Origin: a virus
DNA length: 64,000 nt
Strand: one strand, 5' to 3'
Virus record (IMG/VR): IMGVR_UViG_3300031227_000013
Shown here: piece after piece, positions 4,120 through 57,972 of the stretch
How the letters are laid out: the number at the start of each line of letters is the position of its first letter
How positions within the stretch are numbered: position 1 is the first letter of the stretch
Translations under genes and position numbers: made by a program
Notes under the pieces: generated by a model
Databases searched by the model: none
Told to the model about the DNA's origin: nothing
What the model saw: only the letters and a program-made list of their open reading frames with translations

Positions 4120-4331
4120 ATTACATACCCCCAGCCCGTTCCTTCTACAAACTTTACATCAAATAAATCCCCGTGCATTATATGTTTAATTGTACCTGTA
4201 TTTCCTTTTAATTTAATAACTTTATAATCACCGAAACTGCTGTTATTAGTGAACCAGACTACATCTCCTACACAGAGCTGTCCTCTATACTTTATAATCT
4301 GTCCTAGTTTATTATGCATTTTAGATATCAT
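4116..4331 (-). CDS. Family A small protein, copy 9
   Basis: MHNKLGQIIKYRGQLCVGD...EGTGWGY. Confidence 0.85.
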   Translation of the reverse strand: MISKMHNKLGQIIKYRGQLCVGDVVWFTNNSSFGDYKVIKLKGNTGTIKHIMHGDLFDVKFVEGTGWGYVI

Positions 4332-4543
4332 CTCGTCACATACCCCCAGCCCACTTTTGTAAAGGATACAGGGAATTCATCCCCGAGCTCTGTATATTTA
4401 ACTATACCTGTATTTTCCTCTAATTTAATAACTTTATATCCCCCAAAGTCGTGGGTTTTAGCGAAATATATTATATCTCCCAGACAGAGTTGTCCCTTAT
4501 ACTTTATAGGTTGTCCCATTTCATTATACATTTTAGTTATCAT
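4328..4543 (-). CDS. Family A small protein, copy 10
   Basis: MYNEMGQPIKYKGQLCLGD...KVGWGY. Confidence 0.85.
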   Translation of the reverse strand: MITKMYNEMGQPIKYKGQLCLGDIIYFAKTHDFGGYKVIKLEENTGIVKYTELGDEFPVSFTKVGWGYVTR

Positions 4544-4779
4544 GCCCTCGATCCTCCTTCTGATTCCCAGCCCCAGCCCACTCCTTCTGTAAACTCTACA
4601 TGGTCGTAGTATCTATACTTATCCCACGCATGTTGAATTGTACAGAAGCTTCCCTTCAGGTCCATAACTATATAATTACTGGCTATGCCCCCATCAGTGA
4701 AGTGTACTATGTCTCCGTTACATAGTTGCCCTTTGTGTATAAGGGGCTGTTTTAATGCATTGTATAGTTTGTATATCAT
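4540..4779 (-). CDS. Family A small protein, copy 11
   Basis: LYNALKQPLIHKGQLCNGD...EGVGWGW. Confidence 0.85.
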   Translation of the reverse strand: MIYKLYNALKQPLIHKGQLCNGDIVHFTDGGIASNYIVMDLKGSFCTIQHAWDKYRYYDHVEFTEGVGWGWESEGGSRA

Positions 4780-4970
4780 GTCAATAACCAGCCCCTTTCT
4801 TCTGTAAACACTATAGGCATTATACCATATGTATATTTAATCCTACCTTCATTTCCCTTTAACTCAATAACAGGGTGCATACCTCCTTCAAGGCTAACTC
4901 TAACCTTATCTCCTTTACATATCTGTCCCTTGTATCTAATGGGCTGTTTTAACGCATTATATATTTTCAT
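4776..4970 (-). CDS. Family A small protein, copy 12
   Basis: IYNALKQPIRYKGQICKGD...ERGWLL. Confidence 0.85.
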   Translation of the reverse strand: MKIYNALKQPIRYKGQICKGDKVRVSLEGGMHPVIELKGNEGRIKYTYGIMPIVFTEERGWLLT

Positions 4971-5164
4971 AAGAACATCCAGCCCCTTTCTTCTGTATAC
5001 CCCAGATTATATATATTGCTATGTAATCTGCTTTGTACTCTAGCTCTATTTCCTTTTATTCTAATAACTTTATAATTAAGACCGCTATCTGTTCCGGCGC
5101 GTATATAATCTCCTAAATCCAGCTGTCCTTTATACATTATACGTTGTCTCATATGATTATACAT
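4967..5164 (-). CDS. Family A small protein, copy 13
   Basis: MYNHMRQRIMYKGQLDLGD...ERGWMF. Confidence 0.85.
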   Translation of the reverse strand: MYNHMRQRIMYKGQLDLGDYIRAGTDSGLNYKVIRIKGNRARVQSRLHSNIYNLGYTEERGWMFL

Positions 5165-5379
5165 TATGCTTCTCCTCCCCAGCCCTGTCCTTCTACATAT
5201 TTTATATCACACGTATTGTGATCCATTATATGTTTAATTGTACCTGTATTATTATTTATGTTAGTTACCTCGTAATCAGGATAGTTCCAGTTTGCAGTAC
5301 CACTTACCTTATCTCCTACACTGACCTGTCCCTTATGTATTATCTGCTGTCTATTTCTATTGTATAGTCTAAAGCTCAT
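5164..5379 (-). CDS. Family A small protein, copy 14
   Basis: LYNRNRQQIIHKGQVSVGD...EGQGW. Confidence 0.85.
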   Translation of the reverse strand: MSFRLYNRNRQQIIHKGQVSVGDKVSGTANWNYPDYEVTNINNNTGTIKHIMDHNTCDIKYVEGQGWGGEA

Positions 5380-46042: not shown

Positions 46043-46456
46043 CTAGTTGTTTCCCTTGATCTGTTTGACCAAGAAAATATTTGCACCGTCAACAACTGCT
46101 GTGTCTTCGGATACGGTACTACCATTCATCTTAATCTCAAAGCCTTCGGCGTCGAGATCTGCAAGTTCCAGTACGGCCTCAATGGTCGTGCCAGATTCAA
46201 CAGCTAATTCCGAGAGTGTTCCAGGAACTTTACCAACTGTTACTACGCATTGATTTCCTTTGATCTGCTTGACCAGGAAAATATTTGCGCCGTCAGGAGC
46301 ATCGTCTGTCAAAGATGCGGTACTGCCGTTGACTTTAATTTCGAAACCCTCTGCATCGAGGTTTCCTGCTGCCAGGGCATCTGCAACTGTAGCGCCATTT
46401 TCGACGGCTACTTCTGAAAGTGTTCCTGGTACTTTTCCTACTGTGATTTGTTTCAT
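46043..46456 (-). CDS. Tandem two-copy ubiquitin-like (beta-grasp) protein, each unit ending LVKQIKG-N
   Basis: Two ~68-aa repeats (TVGKVPGTLSE.AVE.G.T...L....L.AEGFEIK.NG...DGANIFLVKQIKGN); ThiS/MoaD/Ub-type GaTv..aL and vNG patterns. Confidence 0.85.
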   Translation of the reverse strand: MKQITVGKVPGTLSEVAVENGATVADALAAGNLDAEGFEIKVNGSTASLTDDAPDGANIFLVKQIKGNQCVVTVGKVPGTLSELAVESGTTIEAVLELADLDAEGFEIKMNGSTVSEDTAVVDGANIFLVKQIKGNN

Positions 46457-46470
46457 TACTTATTCCTTTG

Positions 46471-47160
46471 TTATAACTTAAAGGTTTGTGTTATAGACAT
46501 ATATGGCCGCATGCCGTATATGATTTCGTTCTCGATTGGGTCTCCATTATTATGCTTCAGCATCTGCCAAACAGCTATTGTGGATATATTAACTGCTGTA
46601 GCAATTACTGAAACAGAAGAGCCACAGAGAGATTCTTCCGCCGTATCATCATCATATAGAGTAGCCTCCCACTTCTCTGCCTGATTAAGCATTGTCGGAA
46701 CGAAAGAATAAATTCTTCCGTTATCATCCCCCATTCTTGTTTCTACTATTAAATTAACACCGAACTTCATCTTTAGAAATTCAGTGAAAATTTCCTTACG
46801 TGAAGACATTGTATCTGTCAGGAGAAATACAATATTCCCCGGGACATATCCGCAACCCGTCTCCACTTTTTCATTGACAGCTTCTATTTCAATTTCCGTC
46901 AATTGTTTTATGAGCTCTTTAAGAGCGTCAACTTTGTACTTCCCTACATCAGACAGTCGGAACATTTGATTAGGAATATTGTGTTCTTCCACCTTATCAT
47001 AATCGAACACACGTATCTTTTTCACTCCCATCTTAGCGAGTAAATAAGCTACGTGTGAACCTGTTGCTCCAGCCCCTATTATGTCAACCTTCTTTGTAAA
47101 CAAATTAGGTTTAAAAACAGATAGCTGTCTATTATAGGAGATACTGGCAGGTATACCCAT
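46471..47160 (-). CDS. E1-like / ThiF-family adenylating enzyme
   Basis: IIGAGATGS, DYDKVEEHNIPNQ, GKYKVDA and LLTD motifs; no CxxC zinc pairs; single Cys in EESLCG. Confidence 0.92.
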   Translation of the reverse strand: MGIPASISYNRQLSVFKPNLFTKKVDIIGAGATGSHVAYLLAKMGVKKIRVFDYDKVEEHNIPNQMFRLSDVGKYKVDALKELIKQLTEIEIEAVNEKVETGCGYVPGNIVFLLTDTMSSRKEIFTEFLKMKFGVNLIVETRMGDDNGRIYSFVPTMLNQAEKWEATLYDDDTAEESLCGSSVSVIATAVNISTIAVWQMLKHNNGDPIENEIIYGMRPYMSITQTFKL

Positions 47161-48306
47161 CAGTCAATTTCCTGAAAGGAATACTTACCGACCTTCTTAT
47201 TTTTAGGAGGACGACCTGGTTTTCTCTTTTTACCTACTTTTTTTAAAGGAGTAGCTCCTTCAACTCCATCGTCCACATTATCCAATGGGTATGTCTTATG
47301 AACATTGTTTCCTCCTACAGGTCTTCCCTGATAGCCATTATTTCCATAGCCATTAGGTGAACCACCATATCCATGCTCGGAACCATGTCCTTGAAAACCA
47401 ATCCCACTCTGGTTCATACCCTGGTGATACCCAGCGGCGTTTTTTAGGCCACCATACACCATCTTGGTAACCTTTTCCTCGATCTGTCCTTTCCAGTATT
47501 CTACCTTAGGATCATCATCTTCATTTACCTGAATACTCCATGGGGCATCCTTGAGAGCAAGCCCTATATCATACTGAAAAATAGCGAACCCATATTCGCC
47601 TTTATTGTTTCCGATACATCTTATAAAGAATCTGTTTAGAGCTCCTTCGGAACCCTTAAGATTATCAGAAAATACTTCCATCTGTGTGTTATCCTGGCCG
47701 GACGGACCAACTCCGCCGCTTATGTGTGACATTCTGTTACTTAATAACCTACTAATGTAGGCGGGTATCCAGTTTCCTGATACCTCTCTATGTCTCCATA
47801 GAGATCAGACTATCGCTCGGCCCTCAGCATTACCTGTAGGGTTCTTCTCGCTTAGTCGTTGACCGTCCTTTAAATATCTTAAAGGTTCGGCAGGATTACC
47901 CTCGGCTTTACCGTTAGGGCTTCCCCCTCAATCAGAGAAGATTTTTCTAGTGACTGTTACCAGTCACGGGGCACTCACCTACTGCTTACGCAGCGTCACA
48001 TATTTTATGCCCCCAAAGGCGAATATTATTAGCTTCATCGGTTGTCATATCTCCGGAAGTTATAAGTTCCCCCATTAATTCAGCCAGTCCATCAGGAGTT
48101 ATTTCGGTTGTTCCACCGTTAACATCCTGTTGGGGAAGAGGTAATATATTATAAACTAAAAATACATTATCCTCTTCTTTACGTACAAGACCTAACCATC
48201 CTATTTCATCATCGCAGTTATTAATTATAATGTCCATGTCTTTTTTGACCTCAGGTAGTAATACTACCGAGGGCATTCCTTCATTTAACCATTCGACTGT
48301 AGGCAT
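47160..48306 (-). CDS. JAB/JAMM metallopeptidase, 289 aa after splicing: join(48306..48007, 47729..47160)
   Basis: Exon 1 ends DEIGWLG...LWGH; exon 2 starts SHISGGVGPSGQD; joined they give E...HSHx7SxxD exactly. Confidence 0.9.
47730..48006 (-). ncRNA. Group I self-splicing intron (277 nt, no ORF) inside the JAB gene
   Basis: 5' exon ends in U, intron ends in G; P1 U.G pair possible; P3 TCTTCTC/GAGAAGA; P7 GACTA/TAGTC; P9 TCTCTATG-GAGA-CATAGAGA; GNRA-capped peripheral stems; removal restores frame and catalytic motif. Confidence 0.9.
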
Positions 48307-49796
48307 TACATTATGTCCTTATCTTTATCGTCACGGTCTTTCCAAGCAACAACCGTTCCGTCCTCTTTGACCAAAGGCCATCTGTTTACATACTTACCAG
48401 CGGCATCGTCAACATTAACGTTTTCGAGGTAGAGTATACACAGAGCTGCTATGGCACTGTAGTTATGAGCTGCTCTGATCTGAGGGAGCGATTCCACCAG
48501 ATCTCCCAGACAGGGTTTACCATCAGGAAATACATGCGGAGCATGCATCCCTCTGGAGTTATATCCCGTAATCTGCTGAGTAGTATTTAACATTAGTATT
48601 TCTTTATTAACATCTGTAGGAACTTCAATACGAAAAGCTCCGACCTCGTGGTTAAGTTTCGTACGTGGGTCAATAACATATACTGTATCTGTTATTATAT
48701 GTACCCCGTCCTTAACAATCCGTACTCCTCTGACATGCTTCTGGGAATACAGGTCACGAATCATTTTGTTAGCTCTTTCATCAAAATTATTCGATGTACC
48801 TGCTTCAACCATCTGCATCTTTGCAGTACGATCTCTTAATTTAAGCGTCAAATGTCCCTGATGCTTTTCAATCTCTTTTGAAAGTTTATCAATTGTGTCC
48901 TGCAGCCCTTTATACTCGACTGAAAGAACATCCTCAACAAACTTTATCAGCCTTTCCCGATCTTTCTTCTCACGGGTCTTGGCGATATCAGCGACTTCTG
49001 ACTTGAGTTGCTCCGTTCCCAGTTGCTCTTTGAATAGCTCCAAAGATTTTCTGAAAATGGTGATTGCTGAAATGGAAGGCTTCTGAACCGCATCCCATAG
49101 AAAATAGAGATGATTCGGTTTAACATATTCCATTATTGCAACACCTGTCTTAGGATCATTAATTCCCACCCCACTGTCTGTAAGAGGGAACATAGGATCT
49201 TCACAGCCTACTTTCTTTCCGAATAGACTTGATGGAGGAATTAACTTACCATCAGCTCCGCCTATCAGACTATCTGCTTTAGGAGAAGACCATACTCTAA
49301 TATTCAGGTCATGCTCACAGTCCTCAGGAAGTTCAATATCCCCGTTAGGAACTGTAACAGATACATTCGTATATACATCCTGTAACACTTCTTCAACAAC
49401 TTTTATGAAGTCTTCACGACCACGTCCATCCCACTTATCGGGAGATGATTGTACTGTGATACTTCCAGATCCCGCACTTACTACCTCGGCCTCATTAGGG
49501 GCTGGAGGTGCAACGGGCGGTATATCTTCCAGAGGATCAGGAACTACTTCTTCAGCCGTTACTTCTACTTGTGGAGTATCATTATTGGTTCTTTCCCGGA
49601 AAGTTGTTCTTAGAAAAGAAATACCTTCAAACATTGTTCGTTCATCATTAAACTCTATATTCTGTCCCATTACCGGATGTACTTCTACCCGAGGTATCAG
49701 AAATCCGTCCACATCATTGATGTTGAATGTAGGTGAGCTACCAGCCCAGCCCAATTCAGTTAGTTTGTCTAGTTGTTCTCGTGTTACGAAATACAT
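48306..49796 (-). CDS. E2-like (UBC fold) protein with large N-terminal region and coiled coil
   Basis: C-terminal HAPHVFPDGKPCLG matches the E2 HPx(V/I)xxxGxxCL signature; TAATG-coupled to JAB. Confidence 0.8.
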   Translation of the reverse strand: MYFVTREQLDKLTELGWAGSSPTFNINDVDGFLIPRVEVHPVMGQNIEFNDERTMFEGISFLRTTFRERTNNDTPQVEVTAEEVVPDPLEDIPPVAPPAPNEAEVVSAGSGSITVQSSPDKWDGRGREDFIKVVEEVLQDVYTNVSVTVPNGDIELPEDCEHDLNIRVWSSPKADSLIGGADGKLIPPSSLFGKKVGCEDPMFPLTDSGVGINDPKTGVAIMEYVKPNHLYFLWDAVQKPSISAITIFRKSLELFKEQLGTEQLKSEVADIAKTREKKDRERLIKFVEDVLSVEYKGLQDTIDKLSKEIEKHQGHLTLKLRDRTAKMQMVEAGTSNNFDERANKMIRDLYSQKHVRGVRIVKDGVHIITDTVYVIDPRTKLNHEVGAFRIEVPTDVNKEILMLNTTQQITGYNSRGMHAPHVFPDGKPCLGDLVESLPQIRAAHNYSAIAALCILYLENVNVDDAAGKYVNRWPLVKEDGTVVAWKDRDDKDKDIM

Positions 49797-50439: not shown

Positions 50440-51107
50440 GTCATTACCTTTCTTCCGGGAATATACACCTCTTCATCACTTGTTCTTCCCAGTATGTTTT
50501 TTAGTATTTCATCCATCATTACCGTATTCTGTTCCGCCACTGTATACGGACCCATCTTACAATCATACTCTTCCCCCAGCCGGTCTTCGTAATTAGTATT
50601 CAGAGGACACCGATATCCGGAAGACGCTTTCTTACTTACAAGCTTGCATATGTCCTTAAGAGGCCCTTTAAAACTAGCTAGAGTTTCTCCAAAAGATCTA
50701 CGTACAGATTCGTAGTCAGATATAGCCAGGCAGGGCTTGTAGTTCATGTACTCTTTCAGCCCGACCCAACTATTACCGGCTATCAGCTTTCTGTTCCACC
50801 AGTCATTATTGTATACTATGTAGGATATGTTATTCTCCTGCATAAGCCCGACCAGTTTATTTTCTACTACTTCGGGCAGGACAGCCTCTGCATAATAACT
50901 GTTGATAGATATTCCGGTATACTGCATGTTGCCCCTTACATTACCTCCCAGAACATATTCGTTATACAGAACTCCTTTAAGCATATAAGCTACCTGAACA
51001 ATAGCGGCGTCTGCTTTTACTGAATCAGACGCCATGTTCAATACTATATAATTATCAGGATCCTGTACCCCTGCCTTCTCTTTAAGAAACTCCCTGATAA
51101 TACCCAT
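50436..51107 (-). CDS. Possibly degenerate DnaQ-like 3'-5' exonuclease fold
   Basis: Pattern IVQVAY...YTGIS...VYN resembles DEDDh exonucleases but the first acidic residues are missing. Confidence 0.35.
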   Translation of the reverse strand: MGIIREFLKEKAGVQDPDNYIVLNMASDSVKADAAIVQVAYMLKGVLYNEYVLGGNVRGNMQYTGISINSYYAEAVLPEVVENKLVGLMQENNISYIVYNNDWWNRKLIAGNSWVGLKEYMNYKPCLAISDYESVRRSFGETLASFKGPLKDICKLVSKKASSGYRCPLNTNYEDRLGEEYDCKMGPYTVAEQNTVMMDEILKNILGRTSDEEVYIPGRKVMT

Positions 51108-51630
51108 AGCTCTCCTTACGCATAATAAACCGTTCCTTCACTTCGTGTTCGACACCCCAGTCCTTACGCTTCATCAAACTTATAAGCTCCTTCTGCAGAC
51201 CTGCTATTTCCTCAGCTCCGGGATAATTGCTATCCTTCGCGGGATACAGCTCCACCATCAGTAGACAATCGTCACGGGCTACCCGGTCTATTTCCCCCAT
51301 GGTATATGCTATCTCCCATGTGTCGAGAAACATCAGGACGTAATTAGCAAGTATTATGTTCACTGTCGACATACCTGTCGGGAATGCTTCCTTACCCAGA
51401 ACAAGTTTTTCCCCTACATCCCCTGCCATATCGTATCCGGAGATATTATGAAACCCCTGTTCCATCAGGTAGTTCGAGTTGCGTCCATTACCGCATCCAA
51501 TATCCATCACGACCTCTTCCGCCCAGGTTTCTCCTCTCTTTAGGAGATCGATCTTCTTCACCAGATAGGGGGTAGGATCTTCCCTGGAACATCTTACGCA
51601 CCATCTGTCATTCATATATTTTCGACTCAT
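51082..51630 (-). CDS. Class I SAM-dependent methyltransferase
   Basis: MDIGCGNGRN, GYD, ILANYVLMF; start reset to MSRKY at 51630. Confidence 0.85.
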   Translation of the reverse strand: MSRKYMNDRWCVRCSREDPTPYLVKKIDLLKRGETWAEEVVMDIGCGNGRNSNYLMEQGFHNISGYDMAGDVGEKLVLGKEAFPTGMSTVNIILANYVLMFLDTWEIAYTMGEIDRVARDDCLLMVELYPAKDSNYPGAEEIAGLQKELISLMKRKDWGVEHEVKERFIMRKESYGYYQGVS

Positions 51631-51631
51631 A

Positions 51632-52249
51632 TTATCCTCTATTATTATAAAACTCAGCTTCCATACAATCGTATATATACTTACCGAGTTCAGGCAGTAC
51701 ACAATTCCTCAGTACCTGCCTCTTATTCTTAATTTTATATTCCGATAGGTCGAAACCATACTTATCCTGTAGGTCAGGTATCTGTGCTTTCCTTATATTA
51801 TCCTTAGCAAAAGACTTATCCCCAATAGAAAAGTTACACCAGAACAGGTGTCTCTGCAGAACCTTATCCGGTTCGATCAGGGGAGTATAATAAGGTTTCA
51901 CATTCTCCACAACCCACGGACAATTAGCATTATACTTCAGAAATAGTATCTCCTCGTATAACTGCATATCTGGATATTTAGGTTCCGTACCTCTATACCG
52001 TACACATATATTCTGCCGGAAAGACGAATGACTCTGACACGGGGGACTGCTCCATATGAAATCATATTCTTTATAATGCAGTCTCAAATACTCATGTGCG
52101 TCCCCTATAACTATTGTGTCCTCAGGAAACTGTGTATGATAAAAACCAGCTATGTCTTCATTCATCTCTACAGCTGTCACCTCAACACCTTCGCCCCACA
52201 ACTTCCTATTTCCTCCAATTCCAGAATAATTATTCAATATTTTTATCAT
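51632..52249 (-). CDS. Short C5 DNA cytosine methyltransferase
   Basis: Motif I YSGIGG, motif IV SPPCQ, motif VI ENV. Confidence 0.85.
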   Translation of the reverse strand: MIKILNNYSGIGGNRKLWGEGVEVTAVEMNEDIAGFYHTQFPEDTIVIGDAHEYLRLHYKEYDFIWSSPPCQSHSSFRQNICVRYRGTEPKYPDMQLYEEILFLKYNANCPWVVENVKPYYTPLIEPDKVLQRHLFWCNFSIGDKSFAKDNIRKAQIPDLQDKYGFDLSEYKIKNKRQVLRNCVLPELGKYIYDCMEAEFYNNRG

Positions 52250-53565: not shown

Positions 53566-54222
53566 TTAATGTTTCATATATATCACATGCTTGAAATCAC
53601 TATCCCAGCATCTTCGGCATGCTCCGCAGTCAGTATGATTCATTGTAGCAGGACATATTATTGTCTTAGGATATATCGATATATCCGATGCCACAGAAGA
53701 GGAAGACGCACCCTTTCTGGTAACAAACTCCATCACATTATCCAGAGGAGCATCATTCACCATCGCAGTACTCAGCCTGATATTCAGATTGTCAGGTATT
53801 TCCTTATCCGCAAATGTAAAGTACACTGTATTGTGCTCCAGTGTAGGAAGCCAAAAATGTATATCCTTACAGTTATTACATACCTCCAGAATCCTTTCCA
53901 GATGTGCCTTGTCCTGCAGGTCCCCGCTATCATGAAATCTGAAATAGGGTACTTTAGCACAGTAGTGCGTTATAAGGAACGACATAGCATCCACCCATTC
54001 AGGATACCTGATTGCCGCTAATCGACGCGAGAGGGCGTTCTGAACGTTCTTAAAACGATATCTGCCTTTACACGCATAACAACTATAACATACGGATTCT
54101 TTTACTTTCCGTAGATATTTTCCAGTAGGGCAATGTGATGTGGGTAGATTATAACTATAACCCGGCATCTTGGAAGGATTCCCCAGCCCCCCTGTAATCT
54201 CTTTCGCCTGTCTTATATTCAT
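53566..54222 (-). CDS. GP88-like protein (radical-SAM-related)
   Basis: SKMPG.SYNLP, CYSCYA, FRFHDSGD, WLPT. Confidence 0.75.
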   Translation of the reverse strand: MNIRQAKEITGGLGNPSKMPGYSYNLPTSHCPTGKYLRKVKESVCYSCYACKGRYRFKNVQNALSRRLAAIRYPEWVDAMSFLITHYCAKVPYFRFHDSGDLQDKAHLERILEVCNNCKDIHFWLPTLEHNTVYFTFADKEIPDNLNIRLSTAMVNDAPLDNVMEFVTRKGASSSSVASDISIYPKTIICPATMNHTDCGACRRCWDSDFKHVIYMKH

Positions 54223-57216: not shown

Positions 57217-57972
57217 TTAAGCTATTCCGGTAGCCTGTTTATGCAGAGCCCTTAGAGACGGAAGAACTTCCTCCGATACTTCCCTAAGACTAAACACAAT
57301 ATCCAGAGCTTTCGAATATTTCTCCTCGTTGCCAGCTATTTCATTTAAATCAGTCATGTCCTTAGCCGCCAGAGGTATTGTGTTTTTAATAATTTCAAGG
57401 GTCGCGGTTATCTTTTTACAATTATTAGTATAACTGCGTCTCGCTTCCGAATGTTCTTCAGTTCCTTCTGTAGGGGCTGTATTTCCACCACCATCTTCCG
57501 GAGGATTCAGTCTATTCATATACTCACTGAGTTCCTGTTCCAGTTCTGAAGGTCTGATACTTTCCTCGGCGATCTTATTTTCGAAATCAATACGATCCTC
57601 TTTATCTTTAACCGAGATAAGTTTATTGATAATACCCCAACCGATATGTTTCTTATCCATAGCAGAATCAAGTTCCTTACGACTGTATTCCTTAGCAAAC
57701 TGTGCATACCGGTATAAACGTTTAACATTCATATCCGGAAGTTCCAGCTGTTCAGCAAAATTTTCAATCGTCTTTTCCCCGTATACTGCAGCTTCTTTAA
57801 TGAGATTAGTTTCATATCCCATTTCCCAACATACTCTGAGAGTCGATTTAGAAATACCTTCAATATTAGTTTTGAAGTACTCCACCATTTCATCCCAGCC
57901 TTTAAATGAGCCTTTAGATTTATCATCGCCCGGCTCTACTACTGCAGCTTCTTGTTTCTTTTCTTCTGACAT
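57217..57972 (-). CDS. DUF1016 (YhcG) N-terminal-like DNA-binding protein
   Basis: CWEMG...YGEKTIENFAEQL...LYRYAQFAKEY...IGWG...L.SV.D...R. Confidence 0.6.
   Translation of the reverse strand: MSEEKKQEAAVVEPGDDKSKGSFKGWDEMVEYFKTNIEGISKSTLRVCWEMGYETNLIKEAAVYGEKTIENFAEQLELPDMNVKRLYRYAQFAKEYSRKELDSAMDKKHIGWGIINKLISVKDKEDRIDFENKIAEESIRPSELEQELSEYMNRLNPPEDGGGNTAPTEGTEEHSEARRSYTNNCKKITATLEIIKNTIPLAAKDMTDLNEIAGNEEKYSKALDIVFSLREVSEEVLPSLRALHKQATGIA

Follow-up and report, generated by a model that had tools for sequence, protein, structure and literature searches.

A group I intron lies between the two zinc-binding histidine codons of a predicted JAMM peptidase gene in an uncultured phage

Why does a phage ubiquitin-like cassette carry what looks like one half of a peptidase gene, with the other half next to it? 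The cassette lies on the minus strand of a 64,000-nucleotide (nt) stretch of IMG/VR virus record IMGVR_UViG_3300031227_000013 (hereafter the window, to which positions refer unless another contig is named). Its putative JAMM (JAB) peptidase gene appears there as two open reading frames (ORFs), one of 106 amino acids (aa) at 47986-48306 that ends ...NNIRLWGH-KICDAA followed by a stop, and one at 47160-47732 that starts M-SHISGGVGPSGQD. A preliminary description had proposed that an unannotated group I intron at 47730-48006 separates the two and splits the active site between its zinc-binding histidines. The ORF list has both fragments where that description placed them (...LWGH-KICDAA and M-SHISGG), and gene callers on public assemblies divide the gene in the same way, into proteins of 106 aa (104 on one chimeric contig) and 173 aa.

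A group I intron interrupts the peptidase gene

Searching the window with Rfam, a check that the preliminary description had proposed, gave a single match, to RF00028, whose score of 58.9 bits (E = 2.2e-12) exceeds the gathering score of 50. The match spans 47786-48040 on the minus strand and model positions 1-253, and it is also the single group I match in the whole virus record, which is 185,256 base pairs (bp) long and has direct terminal repeats. Removing 47730-48006 joins CAT|TCA and produces one 289-aa frame reading WGHSHISGGVGPSGQD, whose translation holds the claimed HSHx7SxxD motif. A U precedes the removed segment, its last base is G, and its 277 nt contain no internal ORF, with stops crowding all three frames; these features, too, had been put forward beforehand and can be read directly in the sequence. 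The intron strand folds with an energy z-score of -6.4, none of 100 shuffled sequences folding equally well, and its GC content is 46% compared with 41% for the exons. Together with the ungapped alignment of intact homologues at the junction (see below), the Rfam match bears out the group I assignment and confirms an intron with exactly those boundaries in the peptidase gene. An intein was ruled out because the insert is out of frame (277 = 3 × 92 + 1), is rich in stops and passes the ribozyme model.

The intron is not an assembly artefact, as independent contigs carry it. The allele is identical in at least five independent assemblies (contigs L127, L128, L131, L132 and L129), which comprise three ENA assemblies (ERZ27316158, ERZ27315835 and ERZ27316021) and two Logan runs (SRR7528925 and SRR7548545), and a sixth contig (L130) differs by one single-nucleotide polymorphism (SNP), at 47876 in the L6a loop. 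Contigs L130 and L131, which come from two different samples, both begin at 47997, inside the loop of helix P1; this shared start may reflect an assembly-graph branch from a co-occurring variant, or chance. One apparent variant of the junction was rejected: the odd 104-aa protein P0002 derives from a chimeric MEGAHIT contig (L004), in which the sequence doubles back on itself at a 12-nt inverted repeat, ATATTCGCCTTT, with one copy in exon 2 at 47593-47604 (+) and the other in exon 1 at 48015-48026 (-).

The host gene encodes a divergent predicted JAMM/MPN+ peptidase

With exon 1 as query, phmmer returned 773 proteins at E<=0.001. Those nearest to it are uninterrupted, with lengths of 258-291 aa, and the closest of these align over exon 1 residues 1-100. 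The spliced translation aligns with intact homologues in single ungapped high-scoring segment pairs that run across residues 100/101 (59% identity to P0003 over residues 1-190 and 44% to P0005 over 1-284). A MAFFT alignment likewise has no gap at the junction, and WGHSHxxMGxxPSGQD occurs in every intact homologue aligned. The HxHx7SxxD motif is carried, within a single chain, by 144 of the 151 sequences retrieved. All residues that are invariant in 50 intact homologues (E35, Q62, W100, H102, S103, H104, S112, D115 and N142) are kept by the spliced product, as E34, Q60, W98, H100, S101, H102, S110, D113 and N140. The intron therefore does sit between the two zinc histidines, at H100|S101-H102, as the preliminary description had it. 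Downstream of the zinc site, exon 2 encodes a Gly/Asn-rich region and then a basic tail.

The AlphaFold model of P0003 (predicted local distance difference test score (pLDDT) of 80.5) gave as its top Foldseek match 5lda, the Pyrococcus JAMM1 bound to SAMP2 (E = 1e-7), with further matches to AMSH, CSN5, Rpn11, BRCC36 and Citrobacter BubCD in the range E 1e-7 to 1e-5. By its invariant residues and this modelled fold, the host gene belongs to a divergent JAMM/MPN+ peptidase lineage outside the Pfam models. With both exons intact and all catalytic residues kept, it is plausibly a conserved and expressed gene.

PF14464 had no match in the genome. A word-based protein search with exon 2 returned the window's own cluster only, and a locus search of viral contigs with either exon found no relatives. 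Neither megablast with the cassette nor tblastn with exon 1 returned a match from 50,697 phage records; searches of this sensitivity found no cultured relative. One retrieved protein, P0146, was considered as a further intron case and rejected as a frameshifted call; P0008 likewise looks frameshifted, judged by its divergent C-terminal tail in the alignment alone.

Three states of the same insertion site

Relatives of the cassette show three states at the identical position: empty, occupied by an ORF-less intron, and occupied by an endonuclease-bearing intron. The empty state is found in L005, a 185,270-bp JGI contig with the gene order of the window (474-aa protein, peptidase, ThiF, ubiquitin-like protein), in which the uninterrupted gene reads TGGGGACAT|TCACAT. 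Intron-less JAB homologues, which the preliminary description had suggested looking for, thus exist both at this locus and among the retrieved proteins with an intact motif.

The endonuclease-bearing state is found in L003, a 71-kb Logan contig that again has the gene order of the window. At the identical CAT|TCA it carries a 918-nt insert (L003 positions 4292-5209); exon 1 ends ...IWGH, and the coding sequence resumes with SHPHFSTSPSGQD after the insert. The insert encodes a 245-aa LAGLIDADG endonuclease (PF14528, 27.2 bits against a cut-off of 22.5; phrog_4645, 4e-39), whose ORF opens within the P1 loop and continues across P2-P6. RF00028 is absent at its gathering score from L003, L004 and L005, and from the L003 insert even at E<=10, whereas a covariance model derived from the window intron (R1, described below) matches the L003 core at 4997-5165 with 44.4 bits (E = 3e-9). 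Relative to the window, the L003 core has compensatory changes in P2, P3, P6, P8 and P9. Its P7 changes from GACUA/UAGUC to GAACA/UGUUC, which amounts to two compensatory pairs in a helix that is absent from the model. The two introns share the guide block UGAGUGC before P2 and the 3' end GUAACA..UG|UCACAC. In L006, a more distant homologue, the gene is cut after ...AWFH at the same codon, and a homologous endonuclease ORF begins before the contig ends. The L003 and L006 introns are like that of the window in their insertion at CAT|TCA after WGH or WFH and in their homologous core. They differ in that both include an intron-encoded homing endonuclease, which the window copy lacks: the L003 intron has 918 nt with its 245-aa ORF, and the window intron has 277 nt with a P1 loop of 32 nt and no ORF.

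The same phage also carries, outside the window, a free-standing 339-aa LAGLIDADG protein (L133:1186-2205; G000:C1 about 182275-183294). It has an N-terminal helix-turn-helix and a PF14528 match of 29.6 bits, and is 35% identical (E = 2.7e-18) to the L003 endonuclease; no group I core was detected near its gene.

Architecture of the intron and a proposed splicing pathway

The helices named in the preliminary description (P3, P7, P8 and P9) and the GNRA-capped stems are all present, and the two strands of P3 and of P7 are unique matches. Table 1 lists the elements and the evidence for each. GNRA loops cap the L1 hairpin (GUAA), P2 (GUAA), P9 (GAGA) and P9.1 (GAAA). By inspection, P1 consists of 7 bp between exon GGGGCAU and intron GUGCCCC, and P10 of 4 bp between the guide bases GUGA, contiguous with the P1 strand, and the first 4 nt of exon 2, UCAC (47726-47729). 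Conservation of the exon leaves P1 without covariation. When P1 and P3 are enforced and P7 is reserved, the fold has an energy of -102.7 kcal/mol, compared with -108.2 kcal/mol for the minimum free energy (MFE) structure, a cost of 5.5 kcal/mol. The core is compact, with 1 nt between P3' and P8 and, by inspection, no P7.1/P7.2 and no P5abc.

Table 1 Features of the interrupted peptidase gene, its intron and two neighbouring genes (window positions)
Feature	Position	Strand	Description	Basis
Exon 1	48007..48306	-	Residues 1-100, ending ...RLWGH; catalytic Glu E34 and first zinc His H100	
Group I intron	47730..48006	-	277 nt, phase 0, between the H100 (CAU) and S101 (UCA) codons	
Exon 2	47160..47729	-	Residues 101-289 and stop, starting SHISGGVGPSGQD; second zinc His H102, S110, D113	
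P1 5' strand	48007..48013	-	GGGGCAU, last 7 nt of exon 1; splice-site U in a U·G wobble	Inspection
L1 hairpin	47981..47994	-	GUAA-capped, in the P1 loop; position of the endonuclease ORF in the related L003 intron	
Internal guide sequence	47968..47978	-	GUGA (47975-47978) then GUGCCCC (47968-47974, P1 3' strand); directly 5' of P2	
P2	47950..47967	-	7-bp stem, GUAA loop	MFE fold; 7/7 pairs covary across 52 related introns
P3	47935-47941 with 47843-47849	-	UCUUCUC / GAGAAGA; encloses P4-P5, P6/P6a and the 5' strand of P7	Rfam alignment, constrained fold, covariation
P4-P5	47892-47929	-	Inside P3	Rfam alignment, constrained fold
P6/P6a	47862-47891	-	Inside P3	Rfam alignment, constrained fold
P7	47853-47857 with 47808-47812	-	GACUA / UAGUC	
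P8, then J8/7	P8 47821-47841; block with 3' P7 strand 47808..47841	-		Rfam alignment, constrained fold, covariation
P9	47785-47804	-	GAGA loop	Covariation
P9.1	47764-47784	-	GAAA loop	Fold
P9.2	47748-47761	-	Block P9-P9.2 is 47748..47804	Fold
Terminal G (omega-G)	47730	-	Intron ends ...GAAUG	Junction fixed by homologue alignment
Ubiquitin-like gene	46043-46456	-	2 tandem units; 137-aa tandem ubiquitin-like protein	
496-aa upstream protein	48306-49796	-	C-terminal H-A-P-H-V-x-x-x-G-x-x-C-x-G block; Cys invariant in 4 relatives	

In the pathway that this arrangement suggests, the last 7 nt of exon 1 would pair with the guide sequence as P1, placing a U·G at the splice site, and an external guanosine bound in P7 would attack after the splice-site U. 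The first 4 nt of exon 2 would then dock on the adjacent guide bases as P10, and the freed 3'-OH of exon 1 would attack after the terminal G, ligating CAU|UCA and restoring the HSHx7SxxD zinc site in a 289-aa protein. The ligated exon RNA would read ...GGGGGCAU|UCACAC... Unspliced RNA would give only the 106-aa fragment, translation stopping 6 codons into the intron.

Related introns interrupt phage head and terminase genes

Relatives of the intron were located through the P3 motif AAATCTNCTCTNATNGA. The covariance model R1 was built from the window core alone (47785-47967; 183 positions and 53 pairs, with P7 omitted as a pseudoknot). Run over 100 loci (863 kb), it gave 52 matches at E<=0.01 in viral contigs, including two Rfam-verified introns of Vibrio phage qdvp001. 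Standard pairs make up 89.9% of the alignment cells, compared with 38-46% when partners are slid by 1-3 columns. Changes on both sides were found, across these 52 relatives, in 52 of the 53 modelled pairs, and covariation was seen in helices 2-7 of the modelled core.

Introns of this set, such as those in L046, L072 and L060 and the two of qdvp001, share with the window near-identical P3/J3-4 and P7 blocks (AAAUCUUCUCUGAUUGA, GCGAGAAGA and GCGAUAGUCUGA) and score 45-63 bits on the window-derived model. They interrupt major head protein or terminase genes, often two or three per gene, whereas the window intron interrupts a JAMM gene. Among the nine upstream exon fragments tested against PHROGs, seven belong to the major head protein phrog_1357. 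Pfam was almost blank on the host genes of the related introns, a terminase tblastn was blank, and none of the pattern-derived intron loci encodes a JAMM homologue. The suggestion that a JAB gene is an unusual host is thus upheld by where the relatives sit. On this sequence evidence, the related group I introns are a widespread family in uncultured phages.

In six IMG/VR contigs (L059, L046, L078, L072, L084 and L073), two or three introns lie in one gene within 1-2 kb, mostly in phrog_1357. The annotation of Vibrio phage qdvp001 (L002; KT932418.1, 62857-64929) breaks the terminase large subunit into three coding sequences, and in each of the two gaps lies a group I intron that the annotation lacks (RF00028, 72.6 and 90.6 bits).

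A probable selfish element at an active-site codon

Long stretches of invariant coding sequence are what LAGLIDADG enzymes recognise, and no part of the peptidase gene is more conserved than its W-G-H-S-H codons. Because homing endonucleases target such active-site codons, the position of the intron would be explained if the invariant sequence TGGGGNCAT|TCACAY is the target of the enzyme that related introns at this site encode in their P1 loop. The window copy would then represent the endonuclease-free stage of a homing cycle, and the phage would tolerate it because it can be spliced out. The most likely reading is a selfish element whose endonuclease gene either was lost or was never present. 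Overall, we put the probability at about 0.86 that this locus holds a compact, ORF-less, phase-0 group I intron in a divergent JAMM/MPN+ gene, a selfish element at an endonuclease-free homing stage that is tolerated because it splices.

Several observations weigh against this reading or limit what supports it. Neither exon alone has a match in Pfam or PHROGs, as expected for a split motif in a divergent family. Nine of ten intact homologues likewise gave no match to Prok-JAB, and P0021 scored 17.2 bits against a cut-off of 25. A profile of 50 homologues gave only E 0.45-0.5 against PDB sequences, which made a fold search necessary, and the fold evidence belongs to the homologue P0003 (59% identical) and not to the window protein. 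The unconstrained MFE structure is without P1, and the Rfam alignment puts P1 within exon 1 (48016-48036) and not at GGGGCAU, so that P1 and P10 rest on inspection and on their position beside P2; we regard the Rfam placement as wrong and the GGGGCAU/GUGCCCC pairing as the likely P1. The pair counts lean toward structure because the alignment was fitted to the R1 model, although the contrast between real and slid pairing stays large despite that fitting. We infer the guanosine-dependent chemistry from membership of the family. Finally, the direction of change may have been either one, with the endonuclease ORF lost in the window copy or gained in L003.

We consider it unlikely that the element is a group I intron that has decayed and lost the ability to splice, leaving the peptidase a pseudogene and the cassette running without a JAMM enzyme of its own. 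Degeneration late in the homing cycle would fit the absence of an endonuclease gene, and P1 does not form in the unconstrained fold. However, all core helices are intact, as are the sequence blocks with Rfam consensus matches around P4, P7 and J8/7, and the score lies above the curated cut-off. Both exons are open and every invariant catalytic residue is kept, a state that a dead gene would be unlikely to preserve. The ubiquitin-like units, moreover, all end KGN(x) and appear to require a trimming peptidase, and the intron is identical across independent samples apart from the lone SNP, which falls in a loop.

The preliminary description had gone on to propose that splicing would gate maturation of the ubiquitin-like protein. 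What remains of that claim is only the trivial dependence of the peptidase on splicing, which is a dependency and not evidence of regulation, and the intron-free L005 has the same cassette. A co-opted intron would act through splicing efficiency: guanosine supply, or translation into P1, would set the timing or amount of the peptidase relative to the E2-like, E1 and ubiquitin-like proteins, and so the cutting of the precursor. Such a role would suit a zinc site that exists only after splicing, ubiquitin-like precursors that in three relatives carry residues past the Gly (with KGN plus 0-1 residue closing each of their 1, 2 or 3 units), and an exon-1 frame that enters the P1 loop by 6 codons, where ribosomes could disturb P1. 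We nevertheless hold it to be highly improbable, since L005 works without the intron, the site is occupied in other relatives by a selfish version that bears an endonuclease, and no regulation-specific feature was found; members of this intron family also occur in capsid and terminase genes, a distribution that points to opportunistic insertion. Equally slim is the prospect that the intron has been kept as a switch, with guanosine-dependent splicing tying release of conjugatable ubiquitin-like monomers from the tandem precursor to the nucleotide and translation state of the host or to infection timing; were it true, a virus-owned ubiquitin-like pathway would be under an RNA-level checkpoint.

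It is barely conceivable that the halves are made as two polypeptides that reassemble into a naturally split JAMM enzyme, the intervening RNA structure being incidental: gene callers do annotate two ORFs, and the second can start at an AUG from the last three intron bases (47730-47732), but no Shine-Dalgarno-like sequence precedes that AUG, no promoter-like site lies within the intron, 144 of the 150 listed homologues are single chains with the motif, only two listed homologues besides the window's variant end at this His (both then running into an endonuclease-bearing insert), and the intervening RNA passes a curated ribozyme model.

Comparison with known introns and JAMM systems

The selfish, splicing intron that we favour resembles the phage group I introns of T4 (td, nrdB and nrdD), SPO1 and Twort, which likewise lie in phase at an invariant catalytic motif of a protein-coding gene. 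Those introns occur in both ORF-less and endonuclease-bearing forms, and, as here, a stop codon follows soon past the 5' splice site. The classic T4 and SPO1 introns belong to subgroup IA2, with P7.1/P7.2 and P5abc-type extra stems; the window intron has a compact core that by inspection lacks these stems. The hosts differ as well, being genes of nucleotide metabolism, replication or structure for introns of the T4, SPO1 and Twort type and a JAMM/MPN+ peptidase of a ubiquitin-like cassette here. In SPO1 and Bastillevirinae, the genes that carry group I introns include that for DNA polymerase (PMC11878797). Ubiquitin or peptidase hosts go unmentioned in recent papers on group I introns of phages and across databases, and a literature search, judged by titles and abstracts, returned no description of a group I intron in a JAB gene.

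Among JAMM deconjugase systems, Pyrococcus furiosus JAMM1 with SAMP2 (5lda), BilC of the Bil system and Citrobacter BubCD (9ea4) share with the window gene the E...HxHx7SxxD motif, the MPN fold (as modelled on the homologue) and a neighbourhood of ThiF-type E1 and ThiS/SAMP2-like ubiquitin-like protein. Unlike them, the window peptidase falls below Pfam cut-offs and is encoded by a phage. Its C-terminal extension is Gly/Asn-rich and basic, and its gene stands beside tandem KGN ubiquitin-like units; its activity is a prediction.

The intron corrects the gene model, in that two "hypothetical" ORFs become one predicted 289-aa JAMM peptidase that completes a phage-owned ubiquitin-like cassette. 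Expression of the peptidase would need the spliced sequence, and annotation pipelines miss such genes. JAMM peptidases would form a new host-gene class for phage group I introns, and all three stages of the homing cycle appear to be captured at one active-site codon in uncultured phages. The understanding of group I introns and of JAMM enzymes is otherwise unchanged, this being a familiar selfish element in a host gene that the titles and abstracts surveyed do not report.

The ubiquitin-like cassette and neighbouring genes

The cassette runs in the order 496-aa E2-like protein, peptidase, ThiF-type E1 and tandem ubiquitin-like precursor, the last being ThiS/SAMP2-like. The number of tandem units varies, with two in the window, three in L005 (4691-5308) and one in L003 (6448-6654), and in these three relatives every unit ends K(K/Q)(I/V)KGN plus 0-1 residue. 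The gene looks like a polyubiquitin-style precursor in which the Gly is always capped. With K-G-N plus 0-1 residue closing every unit, trimming by the peptidase is probably required, an activity suggested by the neighbourhood together with the KGN(x) ends. Short extensions past the conserved Gly have also been noted in Bil ubiquitin-like proteins (preprint 10.1101/2023.09.04.556158).

The 496-aa protein has no matches in Pfam or PHROGs and no named Atlas matches. An AlphaFold model built from four sequences (pLDDT 62) gave no Foldseek match at E<=0.001, and its weak top rows are mostly E2 enzymes; by its C-terminal motif, the protein is plausibly E2-like.

Farther along the window, at 51082-52249 on the minus strand, adjoining ORFs have a weak match to S-adenosylmethionine-dependent methyltransferases and to the N-terminal part only of a C-5 cytosine DNA methylase. 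Further upstream lie genes for a GP88-family protein (53566-54222) and a DUF1016_N protein (57217-57972).

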